A stretch of 64,000 nt of DNA, taken from Candidatus Saccharimonadales bacterium (lineage in GTDB: Bacteria > Patescibacteriota > Saccharimonadia > Saccharimonadales > JAXHNE01). A model generated the notes under the pieces. That model saw nothing but the letters and a program-made list of their open reading frames with translations, was not told the origin of the DNA and searched no databases. The translations under genes were made by a program, and so were the position numbers. Positions 13 to 47,813 of this stretch are shown piece after piece (the first letter of the stretch is position 1; every line of letters begins with the position of its first letter). Where the stretch lies: assembly GCA_041600755.1 (NCBI GenBank), contig JBFIJL010000001.1, positions 56,798 to 120,797 of the forward strand, in the 5' to 3' direction.

Positions 13-69
13 CAAGAAAAAAGCCCTAGAATTATCTAAGGCTTTCATCATGGTGGAGCTGGCGGGCAC
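13..69 (-). repeat. Direct repeat: partial copy of the tmRNA 3' end (last 19 nt) plus 38 nt of downstream terminator; the 57 nt are identical to 185..241
   Basis: caagaaaaaagccctagaattatctaaggctttcatcatggtggagctggcgggcac occurs at 13-69 and 185-241. Revcomp of the end is GTGCCCGCCAGCTCCACCA, a tmRNA acceptor/CCA end. Copy 1 lacks the upstream T-stem partner, so it is a non-functional fragment. Confidence 0.8.
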
Positions 70-184
70 GAACACTTAATAAGCTGCTCGGCAACCTGGC
101 AAAAGCCAGGCTCGCAGGACAAGCAAGGAAAACTCAAATAGCCGCTGGCTATTTTCGCCCTCTCGGGCAGTGCCCAAACTTAAA

Positions 185-222
185 CAAGAAAAAAGCCCTA
201 GAATTATCTAAGGCTTTCATCA
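185..222 (-). terminator. Rho-independent terminator immediately 3' of tmRNA
   Basis: In RNA sense, directly after CCA: AAAGCCTTAGA-TAAT-TCTAGGGCTTTTTT (8-bp stem with one GU, 4-nt loop, T-run). Confidence 0.6.
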
Positions 223-602
223 TGGTGGAGCTGGCGGGCACCGCCCCCGCGTCCGTAAGTGTTTCAAGTAGTCTATCCTACAGGCTTAGATCATTTAATT
301 ACGATTGTTAGATGAAAAATAATCAAAAACTAACAAAAGTTCATCCAAAAGTCTTAGCAATTACTATGGATTCTCGTAACTGAGCAATCTGAAAAATAGC
401 GCTTTGCACAACTATCAGATATCGTCGGCAAAACGGCTTTTAACAATTAAGCAAAAGCTGGTGCGGCTACTGGCATGCGGAACATGCTAGCAACGCGCTG
501 TACAAAAGATGTTGCATCTAGTGATTTTTATCCTATAACGCGGGATTAGCGACCTGCTGATCTACCTGTAAACGAGCTAACGTCGAGCTTAAAGTCAGCC
601 CC
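223..602 (-). ncRNA. ssrA: tmRNA (SsrA), ~380 nt
   Basis: Revcomp 5' end is GGGGCTGACTTTAAGCTCGACG (E. coli starts GGGGCUGAUUCUGGAUUCGACG). The 3' end is ...GCGGGGGCGGTGCCCGCCAGCTCCACCA with a G3:U wobble in the acceptor stem (alanine identity). An internal tag-like ORF ends GCC GCA CCA GCT TTT GCT TAA (…AAPAFA*), stop at 447-449 on the minus strand. Confidence 0.85.
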
Positions 603-1432: not shown

Positions 1433-1848
1433 AAATCGAGCAAATCAAGTCCTATGGCTTCGTCATGACGTCGTGACAGCGATACATCGATCACATCAAG
1501 TTTAATTTCGCAGGTGCCGCTAACTGTTAACTCTTTGACATGCCCTCCAAGCCCGCACATTTTCTCGTCAGAAAAGCTGCCGTGAATATGTAGCTTTGGC
1601 TCGCCATCAACCCACGACACATTACCCTGCAAGCTAGTAATCTCTAGTAATTGATCAAAAATTTTCCAATCGTAATACTTCGTGTCTAACTGGTAAAACC
1701 CCAGCTCAACCGACAGAGATCCGCCCAAACCCGAAATCCATGCACCCTGAATATCTTCTTTTTTGACTAAGCTAGTAAGCGATGCAACGAGCTGCTCCCC
1801 CTTGCTAAGCCGAACTATGTATGACTGATCTTGTGCAATGTAATTCAT
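1429..1848 (-). CDS. PPC/DUF296 domain protein (AT-hook-associated predicted DNA-binding fold)
   Basis: 139 aa; the pattern YIVRLSKGEQLVASLTSL...GLGGSLSVELGF...LLEITSLQGNVS...LHIHGSF is typical of the PPC/DUF296 family. Confidence 0.5.
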   Translation of the reverse strand: MNYIAQDQSYIVRLSKGEQLVASLTSLVKKEDIQGAWISGLGGSLSVELGFYQLDTKYYDWKIFDQLLEITSLQGNVSWVDGEPKLHIHGSFSDEKMCGLGGHVKELTVSGTCEIKLDVIDVSLSRRHDEAIGLDLLDL

Positions 1849-3198: not shown

Positions 3199-5421
3199 CT
3201 AAGTAATTTTTTCCAGTGGTGCAAACTGGATATTGAGCGTCTTATTACCTTTGGATTTGAAATAAATAGTCGCTGTATCGCCATCCATCGATATGATCTT
3301 GCCAATACCAAATAGCTGGTGTTTCACGGTGTCGCCTTCATCAAGGGTTGGGTACTCTTGGCTTTCGTCATAGCTTGGCATGTCGTCAACAAACTGCGGT
3401 GGACGGGGCGGCTTGGGCGCCTCGGTTGGTTTAGTATACCCAGACTGCTGCCTGTCAGCGAACGACTTGAAACTTCCACCAGACAATCCAGCCGCTCGTT
3501 CTGAATCGAGCAATGAACTGTCAATTTCACTCATAAACCTACTAGGTGGATTATGTTGCACTCCTCCGTATAACATTCTGCTCACGGCATGCATCATATA
3601 CAATTCTGATTTTGCACGAGTCATACCCACGTAACACAACCGACGCTCTTCTTCCATTTCTGACTGATCGTATAATGCCCTGGAATGTGGGAATAGCGAC
3701 TCCTCCATGCCCATCATGAACACCACCGGAAACTCCAGACCTTTTGCAGCATGGAGAGTCATAAGCGTAACTGCATTACTATTTTCATCAAAGCTATCCA
3801 GGTCGCTTACGAGCGCAATTTCCTCTAAGAATCCATCAAGTCCTACATCTTGGTATTGTTGTGCTACGCTCAAAAGCTCTTGTACGTTTTCTTTACGCGA
3901 TTCGCCCTGAGCTGAGCCGTCATCTATGAACGCCAAGTAGTCCAAACGCTTCACGAGAGCCTCCAGTAGCTCCGGAAGAGGTCGGTCATTCATGACTTCT
4001 CTGAAGCTGATCAGTAGGTCTGCTATGTCTCTGAAGCCCTTGATGGCTTTTGGTGTTAGTTTCATTGAGTCTACGTCAGCCAGTGCCTGAATTAGGGTAA
4101 CCCCACTCGCATTCATGTAATCATTAAATACTTGCAGCGATTTTGCACCAATGCCTCTCGTCGGTGTATTTACAATCCGCTGAAAACTCACCCGATCTTC
4201 GGGCTGATACAGCAAACGCAAGTACGCCATTATGTCCTTGATCTCCTTGCGATCATAAAATCTAACACCGCCAACAACACGATATGGCACTCCATAGCGT
4301 ACGAAAGCTTCTTCGATGGACCGACTCTGTGCATTCGTTCGGTAAAGAACTGCAAAATCCTTGAACTGCCGGAGTCCATGTTGCAGTGCAGTTTGTACTC
4401 GCGTCACAACGAGCTCTGCCTCTGCGCGCTCATTAAAAGCCTCGATAACCTTAACTGGCTGACCTTTAGCACCATCTGTCCATAGCTGTTTTTTGGAACG
4501 CTGCTCATTCTTGGTAATCACCGCGTGGGCGGCATCCAGAATTGCTTTGGTGCTGCGATAGTTTTGTTCCAGCTTGATTACAGACACGCCTGGATGATCA
4601 TTTTCAAAATTTAGAATATTGCGGAAATCTGCACCACGCCAAGAATAAATACTCTGCCAATCATCGCCAACAACAGCTATATTGTTTGCCGAGCTTGTGA
4701 GCAGTCGCACCAGCTTATACTGCGCAGCATTGGTGTCCTGATACTCATCAATCATCACGTATTTGAATTGCTTTTGCCACTTTGCGCGGATTTCTTCGTG
4801 GTACTCCATGAGATGCACTGTCTTAGAAATCAAGTCGTCAAAATCAAGTGCTCCGTTATCCTTAAGCATCTTTTCGTACAAGGGGTAGACTTTTGCGGCA
4901 GCGACTTGAGTTGGACTTTTAGTCGAGCCGGCAAATTTATCAGGTCCAATCAGGTCATTCTTGGCGCTACTAATAACATGGGATAGGCCACGGGCTGGAA
5001 AAGCTTTCTCGTCAAGCGACAAACGCTTACTGACTTGCTTAATGGCTGACTGTCGATCAGATTCATCAAAGATTACAAAATTTTTAGGCACACCAACGTG
5101 ATCGCCGTCTTGGCGAAGTAACCGCACACAAATACTGTGAAAGGTCCCCATATACGGCATAAAACTTCGGTTATCCGGGTTTTGTCCCAGTAGCTCTGCA
5201 ACGCGAGTTCGCATTTCACCCGCCGCCTTGTTCGTGAACGTCACCGACAATATGTTATATGGTGTAGCCTTTTTGGTATCGATAAGATAGGCAATGCGAT
5301 GAGTAAGGGTTTTTGTCTTGCCAGATCCGGCGCCGGCCTGAATCAGTAATGGACCTTCGGTCGTCTCGACCGCACGTCGCTGTTCATCATTTAATCCTGT
5401 AAGTAAGTCATTTTGCATGCT
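3199..5421 (-). CDS. uvrD: ATP-dependent DNA helicase UvrD/PcrA family
   Basis: LNDEQRRAVETTEGPLLIQAGAGSGKTKTLTHRIAYLI (motif I) and DEYQDTN (motif II). ~740 aa with a C-terminal extension (…GIGKIISMDGDTATIYFKSKG). Confidence 0.9.
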   Translation of the reverse strand, partial: SMQNDLLTGLNDEQRRAVETTEGPLLIQAGAGSGKTKTLTHRIAYLIDTKKATPYNILSVTFTNKAAGEMRTRVAELLGQNPDNRSFMPYMGTFHSICVRLLRQDGDHVGVPKNFVIFDESDRQSAIKQVSKRLSLDEKAFPARGLSHVISSAKNDLIGPDKFAGSTKSPTQVAAAKVYPLYEKMLKDNGALDFDDLISKTVHLMEYHEEIRAKWQKQFKYVMIDEYQDTNAAQYKLVRLLTSSANNIAVVGDDWQSIYSWRGADFRNILNFENDHPGVSVIKLEQNYRSTKAILDAAHAVITKNEQRSKKQLWTDGAKGQPVKVIEAFNERAEAELVVTRVQTALQHGLRQFKDFAVLYRTNAQSRSIEEAFVRYGVPYRVVGGVRFYDRKEIKDIMAYLRLLYQPEDRVSFQRIVNTPTRGIGAKSLQVFNDYMNASGVTLIQALADVDSMKLTPKAIKGFRDIADLLISFREVMNDRPLPELLEALVKRLDYLAFIDDGSAQGESRKENVQELLSVAQQYQDVGLDGFLEEIALVSDLDSFDENSNAVTLMTLHAAKGLEFPVVFMMGMEESLFPHSRALYDQSEMEEERRLCYVGMTRAKSELYMMHAVSRMLYGGVQHNPPSRFMSEIDSSLLDSERAAGLSGGSFKSFADRQQSGYTKPTEAPKPPRPPQFVDDMPSYDESQEYPTLDEGDTVKHQLFGIGKIISMDGDTATIYFKSKGNKTLNIQFAPLEKIT

Positions 5422-6097: not shown

Positions 6098-6700
6098 CTA
6101 TAGGAACTCAAAAGGTAAATGAATGCCCGGGAGTAACAATTCCGCGTCAATAGCCAAATAAAGACCGATGATTACACACAAAACGAACAGACTTATGAAT
6201 AGCTCAATTCGCAAGCGACGTTTTGTCAGTTGTGCAATTGGCACGAAATAAGTCTTTTGCTCTATGTGATTATTCAAGGCTTCACGAATCTTTGGGTCTT
6301 CCTTCTTGGATTTCTTGGCCTTAATCGCGACATCGGCGAGCGCGTCAACAGCGGCAGAAGACATTGAAGGCGCATCGGTGGATGACTCCTTTTTGGTACT
6401 TTTAGTTTCAGCTTCATCGGACTTTGAATCAGTATCAGCTGGTTGTTCTGATTCTTCATTAGCCAGAGGCTTTATTGTTTTTTTGGGCTCAGATGGAGTC
6501 TGAGCTGCTTCTGTCTCTTCAACTGAAGACTCTTCTACTGCCTGATCAGTTTTAGGAGCATCTGCCATCATGGGATCCTTCATCAGTGAACGACCTTTTA
6601 AAATTACTGGTCGAGATGTGGCGCTAGCTGGTGACTTACCGGGAGCGGCAACATCAAAGACTCGCTTGGTTTCAGTGCTTGGTATACTCTTCTCTGCCAC
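6098..6700 (-). CDS. Hypothetical acidic protein with C-terminal TM anchor
   Basis: 200 aa; E/S/T/K-rich low-complexity N-terminal part and a C-terminal hydrophobic helix (LFISLFVLCVIIGLYLAI). Confidence 0.4.
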   Translation of the reverse strand: MAEKSIPSTETKRVFDVAAPGKSPASATSRPVILKGRSLMKDPMMADAPKTDQAVEESSVEETEAAQTPSEPKKTIKPLANEESEQPADTDSKSDEAETKSTKKESSTDAPSMSSAAVDALADVAIKAKKSKKEDPKIREALNNHIEQKTYFVPIAQLTKRRLRIELFISLFVLCVIIGLYLAIDAELLLPGIHLPFEFL

Positions 6701-7537: not shown

Positions 7538-8833
7538 CTACGAATCCTTATTCTGGAGTGCCTCAACACCCGGTAATTGCTTGCCACTCATGAGCTCTAG
7601 ACTCGCACCACCACCTGTAGACACATGATTGAAGTGATCTAGTAAACCCTCCGACTCAACATAACCAACCGTATCTCCACCGCCAACAAGCGTAAATGGC
7701 TTATTTCCATAAGCTCCAAGCATGGCATTCATAATAACGTCGGTTCCATGGGCAAAAGGACCAACGGGGCCCTGCAATCCATCTTGCTCGGTTACGCCCA
7801 TGCCACCGTTCCAAACAACCGTTTCGGAAAGTTGCAAACATCCCGCAATGAACGATCCAGAGAAAGGTCCAATATCTAAAATCATCTCGTCGGCTGCAAT
7901 GGTAGTTGCGCTCTTACTGGCTCTTTTTGGATACGCCTCAATATCTGCAATCACATGTGCGTCCCAATCAACAATTCGAGTCGACGCAGACTTATCAATC
8001 TTTTTCGCTACCACGCCATCTTGGGGAATATAGAATACAAAGTTCTCCTTTGCGGTTCTAGCTTTCGCCTTTGCAATGATTTTTTTGGCGATCGGAACGT
8101 CCTCTGGTTCTACTAAGCTTTTTGCAACATCTATCCCTTCGGCCAATAAGAATGTATTGGCCATTGCGCCGCCAACCGCCACGATGTCTGCGATTTCTAT
8201 AAACCTATTCAAAATCTCTATCTTGTCGCTTATTTTTGCGCCACCAATAATTGCCATCAGCGGACGAGTTGGTCTTTCCATTACATCACTAATCGTTGTC
8301 ACTTCTTTTTCTAACAGCAAGCCCGCAACACTTTGGATATGTCTTGTTACTGCGTCAGTTGAGGCGTGAGCACGGTGCACAACACCAAAAGCATCCTGCA
8401 CAAAAACGTCCGCCAACGAGGCCAGCTGCCGTCCAAAACCATCATCGTTGGCTTCTTCGTCGTCATGATATCGTAAGTTTTCCAGCAATATAATCTCGTC
8501 CTGCTTTGCATGATTAATCAGTTCGACAACTTCTTCTCCGACACAATCTTTTGCTAGTGTAACGTCAGCTCCTGTCAACTTCTGCAACTGCTTAGCAACT
8601 GGCTTCATTGAAACCGACTGATCATCTGCACTTTTGGGTCTACCAAGATGCGAACAGATGACTATCTTGCAGTTCTGTTCACGCAAATATTGAATCGTGG
8701 GCAATGACTGCAAAATTCGATAATCGCTGGTGATTTTTCCATTCTCGAGCGGCACATTATAGTCAGCACGCAATAGGACAGTCTTACCGTGTATGTCGAT
8801 GTCTTTGATTGTTTTTTTATAAAATCCCACCAC
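7538..8833 (-). CDS. pgk: Phosphoglycerate kinase
   Basis: GKTVLLRADYNVP N-terminal motif; C-terminal GGGASLELM; 431 aa. Confidence 0.9.
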   Translation of the reverse strand: MVGFYKKTIKDIDIHGKTVLLRADYNVPLENGKITSDYRILQSLPTIQYLREQNCKIVICSHLGRPKSADDQSVSMKPVAKQLQKLTGADVTLAKDCVGEEVVELINHAKQDEIILLENLRYHDDEEANDDGFGRQLASLADVFVQDAFGVVHRAHASTDAVTRHIQSVAGLLLEKEVTTISDVMERPTRPLMAIIGGAKISDKIEILNRFIEIADIVAVGGAMANTFLLAEGIDVAKSLVEPEDVPIAKKIIAKAKARTAKENFVFYIPQDGVVAKKIDKSASTRIVDWDAHVIADIEAYPKRASKSATTIAADEMILDIGPFSGSFIAGCLQLSETVVWNGGMGVTEQDGLQGPVGPFAHGTDVIMNAMLGAYGNKPFTLVGGGDTVGYVESEGLLDHFNHVSTGGGASLELMSGKQLPGVEALQNKDS

Positions 8834-8850
8834 GGACTCCTTTACGTGAC

Positions 8851-10284
8851 CTACGTAATTACTCGAACTTTTACTGTGTCGGTTGTGCCAACAACTCCTG
8901 GATATTGACCACTTGCGGTAATGACCATATCGCCCTTGCTAAATACTCGGCTTTTTTGAAGCCAGGAAGTTAGTTTTGTTGCGGCTTTGGGATCATCGGG
9001 GCGGATAAAACTTTTAATTCCATAAGATATCGCTAATTGTTGCGCCACGCGCTCATCGGAAGTTACGGCGATGATTGGCAAGCCTGGTCGCCGTGAACTA
9101 ATGTTGATTGCCGTAGATCCAGATTTGGTTTCTGCGACAATTGCTTTTGCTCCAAGATTATCTGCGAGGCTGATGATCGCCAGCGATATTGCATTTTGCC
9201 GCGTTTTGTCATCATATTTAGGAAATGTAACTTGCAGTGGTGCATTTGCCTGTGAATACATGATCACGCGCTTCATGACACGCACTGCTTCAATTGGGTA
9301 CTTGCCAGCGGCTGTTTCGTCCGACAGCATTGTGGCATCAGCTCCGACTATTACAGCCGTCGCAACATCTGACACTTCGGCGCGCGTAGGCTCTGGGAAT
9401 TCCGACATACTTGCAAGCATTTGAGTAGCTACAATAGTTGGTTTGCCGTAACGCATTCCAAGGCCTATGATTTTGCGCTGCACAATTGGCACCGACTCAG
9501 GAGAAGTTTCAATCGCCAAGTCGCCGCGAGCGACCATTACAGCATCGGCTTCCTGGACTATCGCCTCTAGGTTATCTATCGCAGCATTTGTTTCTATCTT
9601 GGCAATGATCTTAGCTTTTGAGCCGTGATTCCGTAGAATTGTGCGAAGTTGACGAATATCTGCAGCAGTCTGGACAAAACTAAGTGCCATGTAATCAACG
9701 TCGTGTGCTGCACCAAAAACTACGTCTTTTTTGTCCTTGCCGGTTATTATGTCACCGCCAAAATCAGTATCCGGCAGGTTTATGCCTTTGCGCTTAATCA
9801 AAATTCCGTCGTTCTCCACTCGTACATGAACCATATCGTCGGAAACGCTGGTAATAGTAGTGCGCACTTTTCCATCATAAATATAAAGACGCTCTCCACG
9901 CTTCACTTTTTTTGATAAATCAAACTGTACTGGAATTGGACCACCTTCGCGGTACTCTCCCTTGTATTGCAGCTGTAGCTGCTGGCCAGCCTTCACGGTG
10001 ACTATGCCCTCAAAGTCACCAAGACGAATTTTTGGACCTTGTAAATCTTGAATGATTGCAACTGGCTTGCTAAGCTCTTTCGAAGCTTTTCTCGCCCAAT
10101 TAATACGAGTCAAGTGCTCATCATAATCGCCATGGCTAAAGTTGAGTCGAATTCCATTCGCGCCATTATCAATCAACGCTCGGACCAATTCATAGGTATC
10201 AGTCGCCGGGCCGGCCGTTGCGATAATCTTTGTTCGCTTGTAATCTTCCACGGCAACGCCCGGAGCTTTCATTGTGCTATTCAT
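8851..10284 (-). CDS. pyk: Pyruvate kinase
   Basis: KIIATAGPAT..., ...NFSHG..., KIIAKIE, MVARGDLAIE motifs; 477 aa. Confidence 0.9.
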   Translation of the reverse strand: MNSTMKAPGVAVEDYKRTKIIATAGPATDTYELVRALIDNGANGIRLNFSHGDYDEHLTRINWARKASKELSKPVAIIQDLQGPKIRLGDFEGIVTVKAGQQLQLQYKGEYREGGPIPVQFDLSKKVKRGERLYIYDGKVRTTITSVSDDMVHVRVENDGILIKRKGINLPDTDFGGDIITGKDKKDVVFGAAHDVDYMALSFVQTAADIRQLRTILRNHGSKAKIIAKIETNAAIDNLEAIVQEADAVMVARGDLAIETSPESVPIVQRKIIGLGMRYGKPTIVATQMLASMSEFPEPTRAEVSDVATAVIVGADATMLSDETAAGKYPIEAVRVMKRVIMYSQANAPLQVTFPKYDDKTRQNAISLAIISLADNLGAKAIVAETKSGSTAINISSRRPGLPIIAVTSDERVAQQLAISYGIKSFIRPDDPKAATKLTSWLQKSRVFSKGDMVITASGQYPGVVGTTDTVKVRVIT

Positions 10285-10404: not shown

Positions 10405-10578
10405 TTCAGAAACTCACGGGGAATACTTGGGTATATTCTGCTTAAGCTGCGAGTGAGCGAGCTCCCTCGGTCTTGCCTGAATATCGACCCCTCGTTCGCT
10501 ATGCTCACTTATTTCGGGGTTCGCTTCCGCCAGGCAATACAAAGAAAAATAGACCAGCATTAGCTGATCTATTTTTCT
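10405..10578 (-). repeat. tRNA-Glu downstream segment. It begins with a 12-nt partial copy of the tRNA-Glu T-arm/acceptor 3' strand (ctcacggggaat) and ends with the tRNA terminator.
   Basis: ctcacggggaat at 10410-10421 matches tRNA-Glu 10586-10597 and is followed by gtatattctgc, a motif shared with the tRNA-Arg segment at 33485-33598 (tRNA-Gly segment at 39674-39727 has the variant ggtattctc). Terminator hairpin tagaccagc-att-agctgatcta plus T-run abuts the tRNA 3' end. Confidence 0.4.
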
Positions 10579-10653
10579 TGGTGATCTCACGGGGAATCGA
10601 ACCCCGATTGCCAGGATGAAAACCTGGTGTCCTAACCGTTAGACGATGAGACC
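10579..10653 (-). tRNA. tRNA-Glu (anticodon TTC)
   Basis: Revcomp GGTCTCATCGTCTAACGGTTAGGACACCAGGTTTTCATCCTGGCAATCGGGGTTCGATTCCCCGTGAGATCACCA: cloverleaf folds, anticodon loop TTTTCAT, CCA encoded. Confidence 0.85.
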
Positions 10654-10966
10654 ATATTTGAACATATTCATTGTAAGGTGCGGACTGGCAATCTGCCAGT
10701 ATGTCTTGTTTATCGTTCGATACAAGCATCGATAACTGGCTTCCTAGCCGCAAGACAATGAGACCATTGCTACAATGCTTTATGTAGATTTTAACCGCTC
10801 AAGTGTAGCATAACAGAGGCGGAAATGAAACACCCTACATTGTTTATATGCAGGGTGTTTCAAGAATGTTCTTACGAGATAGCGGTCAGTCAATACTCGT
10901 TTGTTGTACCTAGCTAAACTCTAGCATATTTTTGCGATTCTAGCTAGGTACTTATCCACAGCCCTC

Positions 10967-18667: not shown

Positions 18668-19072
18668 TTGCAAACTATGAAAATTGCTATCATTGAAGAT
18701 GACCGACCTATAGCTAGTATGTATCAGCAAAAGCTGAAACTGGCGAACCATCAGGTGCGCTGCGCTTTTGACGGCGAGGAAGGATTGACCATGCTTGAGG
18801 ACTTCCAGCCAGACGTTGCGCTCGTTGACCTCAAAATGCCAAAAATGACCGGCGATGCAATGCTCGAAATTATCCGCAAGACTGAGTGGGGTGCAAGTCT
18901 ACGCGTAATCATCCTTACCAACATCAGCAAAGATGAAGCTCCCAACAACTTACGGTTCATGAGCATTGACAGGTACATCGTTAAGGCACACTACACGCCA
19001 AACCAGGTGCTGGCTGTAGTTAACGAAGTGCTCGGCATTAAGCCACAAAACTTATCCACCAAAACTCAGTAA
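18668..19072 (+). CDS. Stand-alone response-regulator receiver protein (CheY-like), paralog 1 of 4
   Basis: IAIIEDD...VALVDLKMP...VIILTN...YIVKA: acidic pocket, phospho-Asp, T and K positions conserved; no output domain. Confidence 0.8.
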   Translation: MQTMKIAIIEDDRPIASMYQQKLKLANHQVRCAFDGEEGLTMLEDFQPDVALVDLKMPKMTGDAMLEIIRKTEWGASLRVIILTNISKDEAPNNLRFMSIDRYIVKAHYTPNQVLAVVNEVLGIKPQNLSTKTQ

Positions 19073-19198
19073 AAAACCCAACAAAACCAACTTGTGCATC
19101 CATAAGCGCTTTGGTACTGTATAGTTTCCGCGCGAATTTAAACAGAGATTTTTACGAAGGAAAACTAACAACATAAACGACAGAGTTTTGGAGGATTT

Positions 19199-19576
19199 TT
19201 GGTGCAAAAAATAGCCATCGTGCAGCATGATGATGCAATACGCAACATGTACAAGCTCAAGTTTGAGCAAGGACGATTTAGGGTCAAAACCGCCCGCTGC
19301 GGTCAAACTGCATTGGACCTACTGCGTGATTTTTGGCCGGACGTCGTTCTTATGGACATGCACCTGCCATTTTTGAGTGGTCTTGAGGCTGTAGAAAGAC
19401 TCCAAAATTATCCGTTATTTTCTCGGCCTAAAATTATTTTGACTTCAAATCTTGACGAAGAACAGGCGGCCAAAAAGTTTGGACACCTTGGAATTGATGG
19501 CTACATCCTAAAAGCGAACCACACTCCTTCTGAAATTCTTGGTATAGTACAAGGTATGATTGGAGCAACAGCTTGA
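19199..19576 (+). CDS. Stand-alone receiver-domain protein, paralog 2 (divergent acidic pocket QHDD)
   Basis: IAIVQHDD...VVLMDMHLP...IILTSN...YILKA. 4-nt overlap with the next paralog (translational coupling). Confidence 0.75.
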   Translation: MVQKIAIVQHDDAIRNMYKLKFEQGRFRVKTARCGQTALDLLRDFWPDVVLMDMHLPFLSGLEAVERLQNYPLFSRPKIILTSNLDEEQAAKKFGHLGIDGYILKANHTPSEILGIVQGMIGATA

Positions 19577-19938
19577 AAAAAATTATCCTCGTCGAAGATG
19601 ATGAGATGTTGGCAGAAATATACCAAACTAGATTGCAACTTGCAGACTTTGAATGCAAACGAGCCAATAATGGACTGGCTGGACTGGAACTCATCCAAAA
19701 AGAACTACCTGACCTCGTATTACTTGATCTGATGATGCCGATAATGTCAGGCGATCAAGTGCTTGAAGCAATTCGTACCAGCGACTGGGGAAAAGACATG
19801 AAAGTCATAATCCTTACCAATATTAGTGAGGCAGAAGCACCAGACATTATTAACGAGCTCGGTATCGAACGCTACATCGTAAAAGCCAATATTGTCCACG
19901 ATCAACTGGTTGAGGCTGTTAACGAAGTCCTAAAATAG
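19573..19938 (+). CDS. Stand-alone receiver-domain protein, paralog 3
   Basis: IILVEDD...LVLLDLMMP...VIILTN...YIVKA. Confidence 0.8.
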   Translation: MKKIILVEDDEMLAEIYQTRLQLADFECKRANNGLAGLELIQKELPDLVLLDLMMPIMSGDQVLEAIRTSDWGKDMKVIILTNISEAEAPDIINELGIERYIVKANIVHDQLVEAVNEVLK

Positions 19939-19982
19939 TTCAGGCGCTTGAGTTTATCCTTGTGTTGCCCTAGAATCTAAAC

Positions 19983-20348
19983 ATGGCAACTAAGATAGCA
20001 ATTATTGAAGACGACCAAGCTATCTCCCAGATGTACCGCATCAAGTTCGAAGCCGAGGGTTACGAAGTAGAAACTGCGGAAAACGGAAAACTGGGCCTCT
20101 TATTGATTGAAAAAATGAACCCAGACATTATTTTGCTGGATCTTATGATGCCAGAGATGACTGGCGATGAAATGCTAGAAAAGCTTCGGGCTAGCGATTT
20201 CGGCAAAGACACTAAAGTCGTTATTCTTACCAACATGGGCGAACAAGAAGTGCCTCAGAAAGTCAAAGACCTTGGCGTGGTTGACGTCATCCTAAAAGCC
20301 GACATGACCCCTCGGCAAGTAGCCGAACTTGTAAAAGCCAATCTATAA
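19983..20348 (+). CDS. Stand-alone receiver-domain protein, paralog 4
   Basis: IAIIEDD...IILLDLMMP...VVILTN...VILKA. Confidence 0.8.
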   Translation: MATKIAIIEDDQAISQMYRIKFEAEGYEVETAENGKLGLLLIEKMNPDIILLDLMMPEMTGDEMLEKLRASDFGKDTKVVILTNMGEQEVPQKVKDLGVVDVILKADMTPRQVAELVKANL

Positions 20349-32938: not shown

Positions 32939-33465
32939 CAGACAAGCTCGATTAATTCAACAACTTGTCGCATGCGGTGATTGTCGTCAGGAAACATATC
33001 AATAAGTCCAACTGACTTTAGCGTAAACTGTTCACCCTCTTGGACGCGCCCGCTACGCTGAGCAGTCACATGGGGAGTATTATTTTCACCTGTGTAATGA
33101 GACTCAACAAACTTTATGCCTAGAGGCAAGAAACTGTTGATGACTGCTTGGTGCTGGAACAGTAAGTCCTCGTTGGCTTCAACAAGATTCGCTCGTGTTG
33201 CTCCCCATACTACCTCGTGGGACGCAACACGTTTGCGCCGTATGTTGAATTTGATGTCTCGAAATACTTCAATAACTTCTGGGGCTTCAGCATCAACGCC
33301 AAATGCCGGCGCAATCGTACAGTGCAGCGGCCATTCGCTTGCAAGAAACAACGATCCTTTTGCTGTACGGTCAATAAATCCAACGATACACCATTTTTGT
33401 GAATAGGCAGTCATGCTCTTAATAATAACAAAACTCAACCATTGGTTGAGTTCAATTTGGTGCAC
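32938..33465 (-). CDS. 2H phosphoesterase superfamily protein (LigT-like 2'-5' RNA ligase / cyclic phosphodiesterase)
   Basis: Two H-x-T-x motifs (PLHCTIAPAF and TPHVTAQRS) spaced as in LigT/2H enzymes. Confidence 0.6.
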   Translation of the reverse strand: MHQIELNQWLSFVIIKSMTAYSQKWCIVGFIDRTAKGSLFLASEWPLHCTIAPAFGVDAEAPEVIEVFRDIKFNIRRKRVASHEVVWGATRANLVEANEDLLFQHQAVINSFLPLGIKFVESHYTGENNTPHVTAQRSGRVQEGEQFTLKSVGLIDMFPDDNHRMRQVVELIELV

Positions 33466-33484
33466 CCGGTAGGATTACATAGTA
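33466..33484 (-). repeat. Partial direct copy (19 nt) of the tRNA-Arg(TCG) 3' end, located 115 bp downstream of the gene
   Basis: tggtgcacccggtaggatt is identical to 33599-33617; the copy boundary falls in the T-loop. Confidence 0.75.
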
Positions 33485-33598
33485 TATTCTGCCCGTATTG
33501 CCTGTAAATTCAGGCGGGAGAATATCGAACCTTGACGGTTCGACTTGCCTAGGCAAGTAAACCAAGTAAAATACCCATCCAAAGATGGGCACTTTACT
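33485..33598 (-). repeat. tRNA-Arg downstream segment between the 3'-end copies (contains the tRNA terminator and the shared motif gtatattctgc)
   Basis: Terminator cccatc-caaag-atggg + T-run abuts the tRNA; segment also has gtattgcctg, which appears inverted in the tRNA-Glu segment. Confidence 0.45.
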
Positions 33599-33675
33599 TG
33601 GTGCACCCGGTAGGATTCGAACCTACGACACCTGGTTCCGAAGACCAGTGCTCTAATCCGCTGAGCTACGGGTGC
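33599..33675 (-). tRNA. tRNA-Arg (anticodon TCG)
   Basis: Revcomp GCACCCGTAGCTCAGCGGATTAGAGCACTGGTCTTCGGAACCAGGTGTCGTAGGTTCGAATCCTACCGGGTGCACCA; anticodon loop CTTCGGA. Confidence 0.85.
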
Positions 33676-33709
33676 ATATTGCGACTAACGGAGGTAAATT
33701 ATAGCAGGT

Positions 33710-39314: not shown

Positions 39315-39632
39315 TTAATGTGAAATTTGACGCAAGTGATGCGCAATTACATCTGCTGCAGGTATATAGTCTTTCGACCATTGCTGTGCTATAGAATCAT
39401 CATCCTTGACGATCATCGCTACTGGGAGCGTCTCTGGCATTATGTCATAGAAGTCACGAACCTTTTCACCGTCTGGCGTACGCACATTAAGCACGACTAC
39501 CTGGTGTGGACAATGTTGAGCTATCTCGGATTTGAGCCGCTCAAACTTTCGTGTTTCCATCATCGAGGCATTGCTCAAAACATAAAGTGCAGCGCCTTCA
39601 TTGTCTGAAATGCTAGTGAAATCTAAACCCAT
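39315..39632 (-). CDS. Hypothetical protein (105 aa)
   Basis: No recognised motif; good-length ORF between tRNA genes. Confidence 0.35.
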   Translation of the reverse strand: MGLDFTSISDNEGAALYVLSNASMMETRKFERLKSEIAQHCPHQVVVLNVRTPDGEKVRDFYDIMPETLPVAMIVKDDDSIAQQWSKDYIPAADVIAHHLRQISH

Positions 39633-39653: not shown

Positions 39654-39672
39654 TGGTGCGGGTGGAGAGAAT
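39654..39672 (-). repeat. Partial direct copy (19 nt) of the tRNA-Gly 3' end, 55 bp downstream of the gene
   Basis: tggtgcgggtggagagaat is identical to 39728-39746; boundary again in the T-loop; followed by ggtattctc (related to gtatattctgc in the Arg/Glu segments). Confidence 0.75.
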
Positions 39673-39727
39673 ACTTTGGTATTCTCATTCCCTTACAGAA
39701 AATATTCAAGTGAACTTGACTGCTTTC

Positions 39728-39802
39728 TGGTGCGGGTGGAGAGAATCGAACTCTCGTTTCCAGCTTGGAAGGCTAGCATATTAACCACTATAAGACACCC
39801 GC
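39728..39802 (-). tRNA. tRNA-Gly (anticodon TCC)
   Basis: Revcomp GCGGGTGTCTTATAGTGGTTAATATGCTAGCCTTCCAAGCTGGAAACGAGAGTTCGATTCTCTCCACCCGCACCA; anticodon loop CTTCCAA. Confidence 0.75.
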
Positions 39803-42786: not shown

Positions 42787-42803
42787 TTGGTCGGGGTGAG
42801 AGG
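42787..42803 (-). repeat. Partial direct copy (17 nt) of the tRNA-Pro 3' end (outer copy)
   Basis: ttggtcggggtgagagg is identical to 47667-47683 (the same sequence at the tRNA-Pro 3' end). Confidence 0.7.
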
Positions 42804-42950
42804 GATCGCTAGAGTACTCACACTTCAGCTTCCCTGCGCTCGAGGCCAAGCAAGGAAAACTCAATATGCCACAGGCATATTTCGCCTGTCGGTTCGAGTC
42901 CCTAAACTCAAAGCAAATAAAAATACACAGACATATGCCTGTGTATTTTT
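42804..42950 (-). repeat. Ancestral tRNA-Pro downstream segment, now displaced; its internal ~50 nt are homologous to tmRNA downstream segment 70-184
   Basis: ctcgaggccaagcaaggaaaactcaatatgccacaggcatatttcgcc matches ctcgcaggacaagcaaggaaaactcaaatagccgctggctattttcgcc at 112-160. Palindromic terminator acacagacatatgcctgtgt + T-run abuts the 10-nt tRNA-end copy at 42951-42960. Confidence 0.5.
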
Positions 42951-43252
42951 ATTGGTCGGGTCAGAACGACACTCAGCGAACCTACCTACAAGCCAGCCTT
43001 TATGGGATTTTGCGAAACCATCAACAATTTAGGGATAAGGTCGAGAAGCTACAACGCATTGTCGATAACGCCGTAAAGCCAGAGGGCTTGGAGCTTATCA
43101 AGTTCGTGTAGCGTATAATGTAGATAATATGAGCGACGCCGACGAAACCAAAGAAAACGCAATGCTTCAAGAAAGTGAAGTTGTAGAGTTGCCACCGCAA
43201 CAATCAGCGACCGATACGAGCAACTGGGACAATAAAGTCTTTACTGACCCAA

Positions 43253-44530
43253 GTGGTGAAAAGTATATCCGAACTCTACCTAACGAAGATAGCGAATAGT
43301 CATAACGGGTACAATTTTATGCCAACTATTGACCAGCAGATTGCACAAGAAGAAGCACGAATAAAAAGTACTCTTGGAAACTTCTCTTCAATTATTACCA
43401 ACGCCCAAAAATCTACTAAAGAGAGCCATAATTACAAAATCCTTACAATTCAATTTGATGAGTGTAGGCTTGTTGCCTACGTTCTTGAACACTTGCTGAA
43501 TTGCAAAACAGCTTGGCTTCCTATAGAGAAAGTTCATTGGTGGTCTAGCTTCTCGTACGACGGAGTATACTGTTCAATTGCTCATCAAAAGTTCGGATTT
43601 AATTTGTATATCTCTGGTGGACTAAATAAAAACGATGCTGACAAGTTAGCTAAAAAGTTAATAGCTGAGTTAGAGACAATCGTTGCAACGCTAAGCAAAG
43701 TTACGACGCTCTATGCGAAAAAAGCCGTGAAGGTTGGTAATATCATCCTTCACAATAAGATGCAAAGCCTTGAGGATAGGTACGTATATTATCGTGATGC
43801 TAGCTTTGTTGAGCTTGATACCAAAGCAGAACTTGACAGTATAATGGGCGAAAATGATGGAGAAGTCGTTGAGTTGGGTGTACACGACGAAAAAGACGAC
43901 AAGGACTTAGACAAGAAAGTAGTCGAGACTATGGAGCGTCTTGCTGTATATAGGCGAAAATCGAGTGTTCATCTCTATAATCAGGAGGTTGCAATCATAT
44001 ACTTCTTGAGCTTGGTTGAGCACATATGCCTACTTCTTTATGCGTTTAATCACGATGGAGGCAGTGTAGTTGATTTAGCGATGAAGGGTTGGGGCGAAAA
44101 GTTTGAAAAGGTTATTGGTACTGCGGATAAAGATATTGAAGAGGGGTATCTGTATCTAAGGAAAGTCGCCCTATATAAACGAAACCCTATCACTCACGGC
44201 TTCTTAACTCCTAAGATGACCGAAGCGAGCTTCTACTTTAAGCCAGCACGGCAACGGACGCCAATAAACTTATTTGATGGAGAGCTTTTGGGTGAATATG
44301 GCTACGAGGTAGATTTAGCAAAACTTGACAAGCTACTGGCAGATATAAGGAAAAGTCCGAAGTTTCACAACGCTATGCGCTATATAGGAAATAGTGAGTT
44401 TGATATTAGCTATGATACTGGCAGTATGGCAGAGTTTGAATTAGTGAATAAGATGACCGAAGGCGATTTAGTGGAATACCTCGATGCAGTATCGTGGAGA
44501 TATAATAACGCCGCTAATATGGACTGGTAA
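43253..44530 (+). CDS. Hypothetical island cargo protein (425 aa)
   Basis: Long clean ORF, AT-rich, no recognisable catalytic motif; preceded by ~290 bp non-coding. Confidence 0.5.
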   Translation: MVKSISELYLTKIANSHNGYNFMPTIDQQIAQEEARIKSTLGNFSSIITNAQKSTKESHNYKILTIQFDECRLVAYVLEHLLNCKTAWLPIEKVHWWSSFSYDGVYCSIAHQKFGFNLYISGGLNKNDADKLAKKLIAELETIVATLSKVTTLYAKKAVKVGNIILHNKMQSLEDRYVYYRDASFVELDTKAELDSIMGENDGEVVELGVHDEKDDKDLDKKVVETMERLAVYRRKSSVHLYNQEVAIIYFLSLVEHICLLLYAFNHDGGSVVDLAMKGWGEKFEKVIGTADKDIEEGYLYLRKVALYKRNPITHGFLTPKMTEASFYFKPARQRTPINLFDGELLGEYGYEVDLAKLDKLLADIRKSPKFHNAMRYIGNSEFDISYDTGSMAEFELVNKMTEGDLVEYLDAVSWRYNNAANMDW

Positions 44531-44739
44531 GCCCCCACCCATCGAACACGTCATTTTAGAAAAGCTTGTAAACGCACTTGTAGGCTAAAAATACGTCAGT
44601 GACAAAAAATGGTTTGTTTTGCCGTTTTACCCAACAATTATGAACAGAGGTCGGAGTTAAAAAATCGCCCAACAAACCAGAAGAACAGTAACAGGGGTGG
44701 ACTGTTGGCTACTTACAAAATCTGTTGGGAATAAAAGAT

Positions 44740-45402
44740 TTAGTTCTTGATGAGATGCTTCGTAAATCCGTTTTCCACAAGAACATTAAAGGACTGCCAA
44801 ACACTCTCTGGAATATCCTGTTCAATCTGAAAGCCTAGTGATGGAAAGACTTTAATACGCTGTAAGTCACCAACCATAATGTTTATAAACTGTTCTTTAG
44901 AGCTACTATCGGTTAACATATCGTCATAGCTGAGAGCAGGAGACGTGACGATAACCTCAGTGGAGCTATCTGACCATTGCTTCTTAAATGTTGCATATGC
45001 CCTACGCTCCATATAGGGTTTTGTAACGATAATTAAAGACTTGGGCTGTACGCTTTTACTGTCGAGTAGTTCTTGTGTAAATCGAATATTTTCACCTGTG
45101 TTTGTAGACTTTTCCTCGATAAGGATTTTATCTTCAGACACTCCATTGCCGATAGCAATATCCCTAAATAATTCTGCCTCAGTCGTATTGTTGCTGTGCT
45201 GGGTTATCTTGCCGTAACCACCCGAAAATATAAGCAAATCACTATAACCATCAAGAAAGAGTTGGCTCGCTCGCTCGGCAACCCTGCTTTCTGATGAACC
45301 TAGCCCTAATATTACATCGGCTTTCTCAATCGGCATATTGAGTAGCATATAGTCGAATACGACTTTTGCGTGCTCGTCTACGTTCATTAAATCTCTTTCC
45401 AA
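44740..45402 (-). CDS. DUF218 (YdcF/ElyC-like) domain protein
   Basis: ...VILGLGSSESRVAERASQLFLDGYSDLLIFSGGYG...EKSTNTGENIRFTQELL matches the DUF218 core. Confidence 0.55.
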   Translation of the reverse strand: MERDLMNVDEHAKVVFDYMLLNMPIEKADVILGLGSSESRVAERASQLFLDGYSDLLIFSGGYGKITQHSNNTTEAELFRDIAIGNGVSEDKILIEEKSTNTGENIRFTQELLDSKSVQPKSLIIVTKPYMERRAYATFKKQWSDSSTEVIVTSPALSYDDMLTDSSSKEQFINIMVGDLQRIKVFPSLGFQIEQDIPESVWQSFNVLVENGFTKHLIKN

Positions 45403-45803
45403 AAGCAGGTGTAATCACTGCCCTTAGTAAAGCCCAATTGGTTATATCGACTATCTAAGTCGGCATTTCCTACTGGCGTGTAGACTAGCACTTGAGAGTG
45501 ACCACGACCCCTTAGAACCTCTACGGCTTTATCGTGGAGAGCTTTGGTTACGTCTCCGTTTGCTAGATGTACAGCAAAACGAAATAGCCAAGCAACACGA
45601 CCATCGTCGACAAGAGATACAGTGCCCACAATCTTTTCGTCTTCAACAGCAACAAGGATTGCATCGGTGTCTACTTCAATCTTTTTTCTAAGTCTGTCGC
45701 TAGCGTCACGCGCTTCGTCGAACTGACCACCAAGCGTATCGCTATCTAAGTAGAGAGCTTTGAGTTGCTCGTAATCAGATGGCTCGTAACTCCTTATAAT
45801 CAT
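45387..45803 (-). CDS. GNAT family acetyltransferase
   Basis: 138 aa, ...ILVAVEDEKIVGTVSLV...RGRGHSQVL... acetyl-CoA-binding-like motif; 16-nt overlap with the DUF218 gene. Confidence 0.5.
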   Translation of the reverse strand: MIIRSYEPSDYEQLKALYLDSDTLGGQFDEARDASDRLRKKIEVDTDAILVAVEDEKIVGTVSLVDDGRVAWLFRFAVHLANGDVTKALHDKAVEVLRGRGHSQVLVYTPVGNADLDSRYNQLGFTKGSDYTCFWKEI

Positions 45804-45850
45804 AGTTTTATTATATACCAGAAAACCGTTGAACCTATTTACAAGCTATA

Positions 45851-47679
45851 ATGATGGACAGTATGGCTACAGGAGATAAGAAAACCAGAACACGCAAGAA
45901 GCAAGTGCTTGTACCGCTTAGTGATAAGCAGTTGAAGCAAGCCGAGAGTGTAGTAGCCGAAAGCCTAAAAGATAACCCTGAACTGTTCAACCTGCCAGAG
46001 AGTAGATACACGGTTGAGGGTCTCGTAGACTTCTACGTGCAGTCGATAGCGGGTAGCAGAAAGATACTACCTAAAGAGAAACGACGCTATGTAGTCTACT
46101 TACGTAAATCCACTGATGACGAACGTAAACAAGTGAGGTCGATTGACGACCAGAGAAAAGAGTGCCTAGATTTAGCCAAGAGGCTTGATATTAAAGTACG
46201 ACCTGAGGATATTTTCGAGGAAAGACAGTCGGCAAAAATCTCTGGCAAACGTGACATATTCAATGACATTATGGAGGGTTTTGAGAGAGGTAAATATCAC
46301 GGTTAAATCTCGTGGTCACCTGACCGATTGTCACGCAATATGTTAGGGGTGGCCAGATTATCGAGCACGTAGATTACGAGAAGATACAGGATTTACTATT
46401 CTGCACTTACGCTTTCGACAACACACTAAACGGCAAAATGATGCTTGGTATTTTGTTTGCTACGTCAAAGCAATATAGCGACAAACTAGCGGTTGATGTG
46501 GCTCGTGGCATTACAGGTGCTATCCACGAGGGCAAGTATGTTGGTCTAGTCAAAAAGGGCTACTATGCTGACACTGACAATGGACGGTTTATGCCAGACG
46601 GCGTACATTGGCAGTTATTACGCCAAGCCGTTGTTATGCGACTAAAAGACCGCAAGACCAATCAAGAGATAGCAGACTTCTTAAACGCCTCAAACTTTAG
46701 CTTTCGCAAAAGCCAAGATGACCCCTACAAAAAAGCAAAAATGGACAAAAAGACAGTTGCAACAATGTTTGCCGACCCCTTTTACACGGGTGCTTACAAG
46801 TATGGCGATAACATAGCCAACCTAAAAGACACCTATAACTTTTTGCCCCTGATGACACCCGACGAGTTTATAGCGTTAAGCAAGAATATGTCGGATAGTT
46901 TCAATAAAGAGTTTGTTGGTCGCAGTAACGTTGCTAAACGGCTAGATTTCGGATTGCTTCGAGAAAAGGTTATTTGCGACTATTGCGATAAACCGATGGG
47001 CTTCCAGAGGACAAAGATACCAAGAGGCAAAAACCAAGGTCGCTATATGATAAGTTTCTATTGCCGAGATAATGGTCAGGGCTGTCTACGTCATAATAAC
47101 GAAGAAGCTATAAAACAGTACGGAAAGAAGCTCAGCAAGAGTGTTAGGCTCAAAGATATAACGCCACACATCGCTTGGACGATACAGAACTGCACTAAAG
47201 ACAGCAAGAAAGCCTACGACTACTACATTGAACGTCTGAAAAGTGAGGTTGCCGTTAAACGTGAGACTGCTAAACGCAAGCTGGCTGATGCTAAAAAAGA
47301 AGTTGCTAAGCAAGAAGAGATGCTAGCCCAGTATCAGAACTTTCAAGTAAAGCACCCTGAAGATTATCAGAAGTACCACAAGAATAAGCTAGAGGAGCAT
47401 CAACAACTCCTTGATGTACATAGTGTAAGTGTCTCTAAACTAGAGAAAGAACTCGAAAAACTCAAACAAGATTTACCAACCCGCAAAGAGTTTGCTGAAC
47501 TCGTCCAATCGTATCTGTTAATACTACGTACAACCCGTGATTTGGTGGAAGAGGACGAAGTGTACAAAGAGATGGTGTTGAACCTGCGTGTTAGGGACGA
47601 CTCCGCCCCTGTTATAAAGCTAAATCCACCATACGATATGATGGTGGATTTTAGCGAAAATACTTCTTGGTCGGGGTGA
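45851..47679 (+). pseudogene. Large serine recombinase (integrase) disrupted by an in-frame TAA (46304-46306) and a frameshift (~46335-46365)
   Basis: N-terminal YVVYLRKSTDDERKQVRSIDDQ (catalytic Ser region); after the TAA the same frame continues ISWSPDRLSRN (resolvase DRLxR motif). A different frame then reads GGQIIEHVDYEKIQD...MMLGILFATSKQYSDKLAVDVARG, followed by the recombinase domain and Cys zinc ribbon (CDYCDKPMG...FYCRDNGQGC) and a coiled coil. Last codons TSWSG* are encoded by the tRNA-Pro 3' end. Confidence 0.6.
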
Positions 47680-47742
47680 GAGGACTCGAACCTCCGACCT
47701 CACGGTCCCAAACCGCGCGCGCTAGCCAACTGCGCCACACCC
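47668..47742 (-). tRNA. tRNA-Pro (anticodon TGG)
   Basis: Revcomp CGGGGTGTGGCGCAGTTGGCTAGCGCGCGCGGTTTGGGACCGTGAGGTCGGAGGTTCGAGTCCTCTCACCCCGACCA; anticodon loop TTTGGGA. Confidence 0.85.
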
Positions 47743-47813
47743 CGTTAGTCTAGTGGCTTTTGCCACTAGAAAACTTACAGTATTATAACAGAAATTATTG
47801 TACTGACCAGTGT

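Follow-up and report, generated by a model that had tools for sequence, protein, structure and literature searches.

A gene-less 141-bp insert in the T-loop of tRNA-Arg(TCG) and a recurrent family of miniature inserts at tRNA and tmRNA genes of a Saccharimonadales bacterium

In a 64,000-nucleotide stretch of the genome of a Candidatus Saccharimonadales bacterium (contig JBFIJL010000001.1 of assembly GCA_041600755.1), referred to here at its full length as the window, the 3' end of the intact gene for tRNA-Arg(TCG) is repeated a short distance downstream, and the locus raises the question of what put the second copy there. Fragments of tRNA 3' ends routinely delimit genomic islands, and current tools drop cases that lack an integrase or are smaller than 2 kb. 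An earlier note, made from the letters of the window, had regarded the repeat as an integration-type footprint and had pointed to a tyrosine integrase. We lean towards the view that the sequence between the copies, together with one of them, represents a miniature integrative element without cargo, one of a recurrent family here called type A, that would enter the T-loop at nucleotides (nt) 57/58 and be moved in trans by a recombinase. As shown by comparison with empty sites in relatives, the insertion leaves an intact tRNA with a new terminator, the original 3' end and terminator having been pushed 141 bp downstream. Because the feature belongs to a widespread family of mini-inserts, the question shifts from a lost island to a miniature element.

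Two copies of the 19-mer TGGTGCACCCGGTAGGATT, and no more, are present in the window, both in direct orientation, at 33599-33617 within the tRNA gene and at 33458-33476, against a chance expectation of 0.01 copies; two or more copies were found in 0 of 100 shuffled sequences. The exact direct duplication described in the earlier note is thus real, although the full repeat is 20 nt long, its second copy lies 8 nt away from the position given for it (33466-33484), and the distance from start to start is 141 bp, which leaves 121 bp of intervening sequence, rather than the 114-115 bp reported. The boundary does fall in the T-loop, as had been noted, with the repeat starting at the canonical position A58, and it is preceded by TCG in the tRNA but by TGT at its distal copy. 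It also holds that no integrase or cargo lies between the copies, neither the 121 bp nor the insert as a whole containing an open reading frame (ORF), and that the intervening sequence carries both a terminator and motifs common to other tRNA loci.

The case for an insertion comes from related genomes (loci compared are cited by their L numbers). A scan of one genome per species found the 19-mer in 33 genomes, of which roughly half belong to Saccharibacteria or other Patescibacteria, and none of the 33 holds two exact copies. In L002, a metagenome-assembled genome of the Saccharimonadales, the tRNA gene is identical at 77 of 77 positions, AATTAAATCG stands directly after the CCA, and homologues of both downstream window genes follow. 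In L131 the tRNA and terminator are followed by TTTTGTTATTATTAAG, the flank that is found after the distal copy in the window. Compared with these two sites the window has gained 141 bp, and since L002 and L131 have the tRNA and the downstream flank without anything between, the 141 bp are an insertion; from this alignment of flanks we infer that the distal copy is the original tRNA 3' end and that the proximal copy was brought in by the insert. The footprint proposed earlier is supported by these orthologous empty sites. The note had proposed a check of related genomes for an island at this tRNA: L002 and L131 are empty there, and the orthologous tRNA-Arg(TCG) in L125, a relative with conserved synteny, carries an insert of a different type with the same architecture, and this site was therefore hit independently. 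The 158-amino-acid (aa) gene downstream, tried as a comparative anchor, is an orphan carried by this genome and one identical Logan contig only. That contig (SRR29257383; L001:1-80), the only other assembly of the organism, breaks 3 nt before the 5' end of tRNA-Arg(TCG) (tRNA at L001:4-80), which could reflect an assembly break at a repeat or a variable site. The insertion itself is recent-looking.

The insert spans 33457 to 33597 and, in the orientation of the tRNA, consists of the new 3' end, a terminator, three hairpins (H1 to H3) and a short tail (Table 1). The same terminator design is seen in the inserts at tRNA-Glu and tRNA-Gly of the window and at tRNA-Lys of L125. The 87-nt interior folds as three adjacent hairpins with an energy of -33.6 kcal/mol, compared with -17.8 ± 2.9 for shuffled sequences (z = -5.4; 0 of 200 shuffles as good). 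Hairpin H2 is formed by AGGTTCGA, the 5' half of the T-arm, and the inverse TCGAACC; both tRNA fragments end at nt 57/58, and the hairpin lies 49 nt upstream of the displaced copy. AGGTTCGA is the sole tRNA match of the interior (12 of 500 shuffles as good), and the earlier statement that no further tRNA similarity lies upstream of the copy fails for this piece and stands for nt 1-48, with which local alignment was no better than with shuffles (422 of 500 and 335 of 500 shuffles scored at least as high). Hairpin H3 contains a sigma70-like TTTACA-16-TATACT (33508-33481) facing the displaced copy; on reading of the sequences, the type A copies at Glu and Lys do not share this outward promoter, and it was given no weight. 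The ends of the insert lack terminal inverted repeats. In Rfam 15, only tRNA and tmRNA (transfer-messenger RNA) reach gathering score in the window, and permissive searches gave sub-threshold matches only, far below gathering scores (33380-33700 at E<=10; L033 at E<=5).

The same layout is found at five of the eight tRNA and tmRNA genes of the window, namely tmRNA, Glu, Arg-TCG, Gly and Pro; no partial copies adjoin the window's Lys, His or Arg-TCT genes. All short-range repeats in the window start at nt 58 after ..GT. The repeats of the five genes, with lengths of 12, 16, 19, 20 and 57 nt, always reach the tRNA end or beyond; three of them are perfect (20/20, 19/19 and 57/57), and the 16-nt repeat at tRNA-Pro (47668-47683 and 42788-42803) has its copies 4.9 kb apart. 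The type A signature is common to the Arg, Glu and shortened Gly inserts, and with a clear type A insert at tRNA-Lys(CTT) of L125 the type A interior is present at four different tRNAs in two genera. The Lys insert is closer to the Glu insert of the window than the Arg insert of the window is, and its inverted T-arm piece, CTCGAACCCAC, is an exact match to tRNA-Lys. Indeed, the inverted tRNA fragments mostly fit their own tRNA better than other tRNAs (Glu 10 nt, L125-Lys 11, L125-Arg 11, Pro 11, L036-Pro 10), and in type A all tRNA-derived pieces break at nt 57-59. From terminator to junction the Arg, Glu and L125-Lys inserts are collinear and differ only by indels in the hairpins. Outside the window the same architecture recurs in L004, L018, L029, L033, L036, L037 and L125: a third type is seen at tRNA-Arg(GCG) and tRNA-Ser(GCT) (L004, L018, L029), and L033 has two tandem units after tRNA-Lys. 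Throughout these related inserts, within the window and outside it, the boundary of the copy is at nt 58, and every one contains pieces of the T-arm of its own target. The same interior at different tRNAs and in different genera, fragments matched to the target, and empty orthologous sites are the behaviour of a mobile unit and not of independent decay.

Table 1. Features of the window and of compared loci (window positions unless an L number is given; a slash marks a junction).
Feature	Coordinates	Strand	Remarks
tRNA-Arg(TCG), intact	33599..33675	-	ARAGORN; Rfam tRNA 70.7 bits
Proximal copy of 20-nt direct repeat	33598..33617	-	AATCCTACCGGGTGCACCAA = tRNA nt 58-76 plus 1
Insert terminator	33564..33598	-	AGTAAAGTGCCCATCTTTGGATGGGTATTTTACTT; directly after CCA; hairpin flanked by complementary A- and T-tracts
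Hairpin H1	33543..33558	-	ACTTGCC TAGG GGCAAGT-type palindrome; TTGCCT..AGGCAAG motif common to Glu insert
Hairpin H2	33526..33542	-	(T)CGAACC-GTCAA-GGTTCG(A); T-arm 5' half plus T-loop (nt 52-58) paired with its own reverse complement
Hairpin H3	33484..33525	-	long, imperfect, ATATTCTCCCGCCTG..CAGGCAATACGGGCAGAATAT; ends are the type A signature TCGATATTC ... GCAGAATATAC
Junction tail	33477..33483	-	ACTATGT (7 nt); ..GT just before A58 of displaced copy in all type A inserts
Distal (displaced) copy of 20-nt repeat	33457..33476	-	followed by the flank that directly follows the tRNA in empty sites
Original tRNA terminator	33431..33453	-	GAACTCAACCAATGGTTGAGTTT, then TGTTATTATTAAG; same flank follows the tRNA in empty-site L131
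tmRNA gene	223-602	-	
tmRNA mini-insert	13..222	-	57-nt perfect repeat 185-241 and 13-69, terminator included; interior a diverged relative of element E
tRNA-Glu (10579-10653) type A mini-insert	10413..10578	-	12-nt repeat 10586-10597; truncated displaced copy ATTCCCCGTGAG at 10413-10424
tRNA-Gly (39728-39802) type A-like mini-insert	39654..39727	-	short; 19-nt repeat 39728-39746 and 39654-39672, 55 nt between; ends ..GAGAATACCAAAGT/ATTCTCTCC
tRNA-Pro outer mini-insert	42788..42952	-	beyond serine-recombinase island; terminator, inverted T-arm GGGACTCGAACC, E-like module, displaced copy 42788-42803
Serine-recombinase island at tRNA-Pro (47668-47744)	42953..47667		recombinase pseudogene, GNAT, DUF218, ORF of no known kind
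Conserved segment of ~52 aa	42953-43111; L036 ~771-932; L037 ~4501-4659; L070 1396-1554; L087, L040	+ (window)	
Element E copies	L033:5910-6010, 6099-6198, 1607-1706; L105:1455-1555; L062:10458-10557; L082:2680-2779		
Element E copies, continued	L093:4028-4127; L036:572-687; L108:416-515; L054:2312-2426		

How might such a unit move? We propose that it would travel as a segment or small circle, with tRNA nt 58-76 forming part of its attachment site, and that a site-specific recombinase supplied in trans would exchange strands in the palindromic TTCGAA centre of the T-loop. The incoming unit would restore the tRNA with its own copy of nt 58-76 and supply a new terminator, and the direct and inverted T-arm pieces that make up H2 would be half-site mimics, or by-products of exchange at that symmetric site. 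The hypothetical mechanism predicts specific joints: an empty junction ..GGTGCACCA/AATTGAACTCAACC and a circle or tandem junction ..GAATATACTATGT/AATCCTACCGGGTGCACCA/AGTAAAGTGCCC, the circle junction being expected to read ..ACTATGT/AATCC..CCA/AGTAAAG.

Several observations weigh against this proposal. No recombinase lies in or next to the insert. A scan of 19 window ORFs for the Phage_integrase domain found no tyrosine integrase, and the attribution to such an enzyme in the earlier note is not upheld; the sole recombinase family seen is that of a large serine recombinase, which uses a different junction. Searches of the window, of ~1.1 Mb of related loci and of viral, phage and plasmid collections turned up no autonomous parent sharing the ends of the insert, and neither an excised circle nor a presence-absence polymorphism within the species was observed, with one identical contig only for comparison. 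A classical integrase does not explain retargeting to different tRNAs with matching fragments, and covarying hairpins such as those of element E, described below, are unusual for double-stranded protein-binding arms. In the viral collection the Arg 19-mer had no match, and the Arg insert had none by blastn against phage records. Two candidate hits in the viral collection were set aside: the Gly 19-mer matched complete phage tRNA-Gly genes only, not phage attachment-site (attP) fragments, and the single match of the type A end motif (L132) lies in an AT-rich coding region without tRNA sequence and is ascribed to chance.

The alternative that survives best is that the Arg insert is a decayed scar, left when a larger island with its own integrase entered at the T-loop and lost all but its two ends. 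We consider this unlikely, though it deserves a serious hearing. Islands do decay here, since the recombinase gene of the tRNA-Pro island (45851-47679, plus strand) is a pseudogene with one stop and one frameshift; the Gly insert resembles a shortened type A copy, the displaced copy at Glu is truncated, and the small size of Patescibacteria genomes can be counted on the same side. However, independent random deletions would not be expected to leave the collinearity seen among the Arg, Glu and L125-Lys inserts, nor interiors as highly structured as that at Arg, and the perfect repeats imply that the inserts are young or constrained. Moreover, the survey of about 172 tRNA and tmRNA genes yielded some 15 or more mini-inserts, with no matching larger island and no large T-loop-type island with a different integrase.

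The next alternative draws on element E, a discrete three-hairpin element of ~95 nt that lies inside partial tRNA copies and was first met as the interior of the L033-type insert, which matched sequences upstream of other tRNA genes. E is situated between nt 53 and 57 of the T-loop in L033, L105, L082, L036 and L108, after the D-arm in L093 and L062, and in the anticodon loop in L054. A partial copy bearing E is a 3' fragment when it lies downstream of the intact tRNA; when it lies upstream it is a 5' fragment, after which comes a promoter-like TTxACA..TAxxxT. Folded-back tRNA sequence closes the partial copy on its truncated side; in L036 this takes the form of a perfect palindrome, CTTCGACCTC/GAGGTCGAAGG. 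Across seven copies, 96.4% of cells are paired and 24 of 32 pairs have compensatory double changes, compared with 0-4 pairs in slid controls and a value reached in 0 of 500 shuffles; the pairs include 8 G-U and 0 A-C, and folding of the tRNA-sense strand is therefore indicated. A covariance model of E found 10 good copies in 0.94 Mb and matched the tmRNA and outer tRNA-Pro inserts of the window weakly (E about 0.07; 126-162 and 42812-42889). E has no family match in Rfam and no blastn match in phage and plasmid records. Hairpin H3 of the Arg insert occupies the position equal to that of E in the architecture; homology of the two is not demonstrated.

In L105 (~1560-1600, minus strand) the E-bearing partial tRNA-Pro copy also has a 17-nt hairpin, TCCGCTGTCCAGCGGAG, that replaces part of the D-loop, and the insertion of small hairpins into tRNA loops may be more widespread. 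In L062 (~10600-10700, minus strand) nt 1-15 of tRNA-Pro are present once more as a short 5' fragment upstream of the partial copy that holds E, which suggests serial 5'-side events mirroring the tandem 3'-side units of L033.

On the strength of these data a structured RNA or single-stranded DNA (ssDNA) element could be imagined that inserts into tRNA loops without a double-strand integrase and survives where an intact tRNA is kept or regenerated, the fold-back palindromes of the target being by-products of snap-back or template-switch synthesis. The covariation and sense-strand folding of E, its placement in three different parts of the tRNA and on either side of the intact gene, the L036 palindrome at a truncated edge and the variable repeat length (12 to 57 nt) are all in keeping with this idea, to which we assign a rather low probability, a little below that of decay. 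Against it, the repeats always run from the break to the tRNA end, a hallmark of gene-restoring integrative elements; type A shows conservation of sequence and not covariation; no reverse transcriptase, HUH enzyme or signature of an intron-type ribozyme was seen nearby and Rfam gave no match; and group II introns are reported to be absent from Patescibacteria (PMC13011429).

A related and more general possibility, which we hold only tentatively, is that a structured module (the type A hairpin or the ~95-nt E), as RNA or folded ssDNA, might be the recombination or targeting determinant of gene-less 75-200 bp units that home to tRNA and tmRNA loops in Saccharibacteria and related Patescibacteria. 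This would be an undescribed class of element with a new mechanism, as opposed to an integrase footprint. Such units may be built from three parts, namely a piece that restores the tRNA, a terminator or promoter, and a single-strand module with structure, the T-arm pieces serving as guides or being by-products.

A third alternative makes the inserts products of the window's own family of tRNA-targeting large serine recombinases. The family has 481 relatives at E<1e-10, of about 600 aa each, and among 80 metagenome loci (L035-L114) the recombinase gene terminates in a convergent tRNA, or no more than 15 nt from one, at about 60 of the about 66 loci with enough sequence; the tRNAs are mostly Pro, with some Gln, Leu and Val. 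In favour of a role are this strong linkage, the mini-inserts that lie just beyond the recombinase island (window, L036, L037) or upstream of tRNA-Pro genes occupied by a recombinase (L054, L062, L082, L093 and L105), and the mid-T-loop insertion carried out by a serine recombinase in Dehalococcoides. But the islands share a far junction, ..TTGTAGGTAGGTTCGYTGAGTGTCGYTCTGA/(G/C)YCGACCA, that displaces only the last 7-8 nt of the tRNA and not nt 58-76, and the exchange is therefore near the tRNA 3' end rather than at nt 58. The motif that precedes the break, GGTTCGYTGAGTGTCGYTCTGA, is absent from the Arg, Glu, Gly and tmRNA inserts, and within the window it occurs only at the tRNA-Pro island, whose far junction is GGTTCGCTGAGTGTCGTTCTGA/CCCGACCA at 42953-42982. 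Nor were family members seen at Arg, Glu, Gly or tmRNA genes; at tRNA-Arg a terminator follows the tRNA and there is no recombinase coding sequence, and at tRNAs that the family does not target no mini-insert with a 17-nt displaced 3' copy was found (L035-L114, ~0.8 Mb). With both junction motif and crossover zone differing, this family as the direct cause is rejected and we regard any such origin as very improbable. In the window, L036 and L037 the position of the mini-insert beyond the island points to an earlier event that was displaced outward.

At the far junction of these islands there begins exactly a conserved coding segment of ~52 aa (WS.Q.DTQRTY..LRNHQQFRDKV.KLQRI.DNAVKPEGLELIKF, then a stop). 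In L070 it stands directly after the recombinase 3' end, as at an attP-like or tandem junction, and integration therefore alters its fusion partner or upstream sequence; the segment could be a switch between integrated and excised states. The window documents a large family of tRNA-targeting serine integrases, a kind of enzyme that the literature treats as rare: serine integrases at tRNA and tmRNA genes numbered 14 of 297 and were 'not reported previously to our knowledge' (PMC7192596).

A purely local event, whether a tandem tRNA pseudogene, replication slippage or a chance repeat, could point to the short T-arm piece upstream of the copy but is essentially excluded, as the interior has no similarity to tRNA nt 1-48 beyond shuffles, the stretch separating the copies has no duplicate downstream, inserts at other tRNAs and in another genus are homologues of this interior, and the chance expectation is that given above. 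For the tandem pseudogene, which the earlier note had named as the finding that would undo its reading, local alignment gave no support, similarity to the D- and anticodon-arms being missing. Three further candidates were discarded. A miniature inverted-repeat transposable element, or a transposase leaving a target-site duplication of fixed length, does not accord with repeats of 12-57 nt and ends without terminal inverted repeats. A retroviral-type primer-binding site (18 nt complementary to a tRNA 3' end, with a stop at nt 58) was considered because of the boundary and rejected, the copy being in sense orientation directly beside its own intact tRNA with no reverse transcriptase near. An integron-like exchange at G/TT does not fit the junction sequences.

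Other features of the region are recorded here in their own right. Small ORFs with a GIY-YIG nuclease domain (78-93 aa) adjoin tRNA genes in relatives (L125:7848-8084 and 8794-9075; L127:4665-4928); the one in L127 separates tRNA-Gly from tRNA-Arg(TCT), a position occupied in the window by the Gly mini-insert and an unassigned ORF of 105 aa (39315-39632). Also in L127 (4632-4660), a 9-nt piece, TCGCCACCC, ten nt past the CCA of tRNA-Gly matches the tRNA's own 3' part and could be a nearly erased mini-insert or a chance match. The window's tmRNA gene was found by Rfam (64 bits) and missed by ARAGORN, and its T-loop is GGCGGTG, not of the usual TTCRANY type. At 18668-20348 (plus strand) there are four consecutive ORFs of ~121-134 aa whose N-termini, by eye, resemble response-regulator receiver domains (..IAIIEDD..).

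The significance of the miniature element that we favour lies in its family. Most tRNA and tmRNA genes in this stretch of a reduced Saccharibacteria genome adjoin gene-less 0.1-0.2 kb units that replace the tRNA end together with its terminator or promoter, and such units recur across genera and tRNA identities with conserved structured modules. If they are active, Patescibacteria would harbour a concealed layer of mobile DNA by which tRNA transcription units are rewired, and the units would mark sites and recombinases of possible engineering use in organisms without genetic tools. Should E be the active determinant, it would represent a new type of RNA or DNA for recombination or targeting.

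We found no description in the literature of gene-less 0.1-0.2-kb units of this kind, and each known system resembles them in part. Non-canonical tRNA introns (archaeal bulge-helix-bulge introns and the group I introns of Patescibacteria; PMC13011429) are likewise structured inserts in the T-loop, anticodon loop and D region, those described so far in Patescibacteria being group I introns in the anticodon loop (PMC13011429). Here, in contrast, truncated copies lie beside an intact tRNA, ~50-95 nt is far too small for group I, and Rfam gave no intron match. Gene-less integron cassettes and their attC sites share with our units a size of about 60-140 nt, an imperfect hairpin, structure conserved over sequence (shown for E) and arrays at one point, but there is no integron integrase, attI or R/L box consensus here and the insertion point is the tRNA T-loop. 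Cis-mobilizable elements (CIMEs) keep attL and attR without recombination or transfer genes, and their mobilisation in trans by a related element is presumed (PMC5704250). Our inserts have the same attL/attR arrangement without genes; CIMEs, however, are kilobase-sized, recognisable deletion derivatives of a known integrative and conjugative element with the same att sites (PMC5704250), whereas no parent, nor any autonomous relative using these att sites, came to light here, and different tRNA targets share one interior.

The ssrA islands of Dehalococcoides, moved by the serine recombinase DsiB, insert in mid-T-loop with a 20-bp repeat, form tandem arrays and include integrase-less units suggested to be cis-mobilizable (PMC3146451). 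They are kilobases long, carry genes, have the recombinase next to attL and use ssrA only (PMC3146451), whereas here many tRNAs are hit by ~0.1 kb units with no linked recombinase. Integration of elements is known to leave partial tRNA copies behind (PMC9897764; PMC7192596), and there is a likeness to the integrative elements at tRNA and tmRNA genes of the Islander type (PMC7192596), with their attL/attR footprint and Williams' T-loop sublocation, which also show an intact tRNA, a direct 3' copy from the T-loop, an incoming new 3' end, empty sites in relatives and tandem arrays. At tRNA-Arg the displaced fragment and the uninterrupted site in relatives are both present, without a Phage_integrase gene between. 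An int gene and a length of no less than 2 kb are required by Islander and TIGER, whereas the units described here measure 74-173 bp without any gene, and they differ from Islander-type elements in an interior made of direct and inverted fragments of the target T-arm and of strongly structured hairpins.

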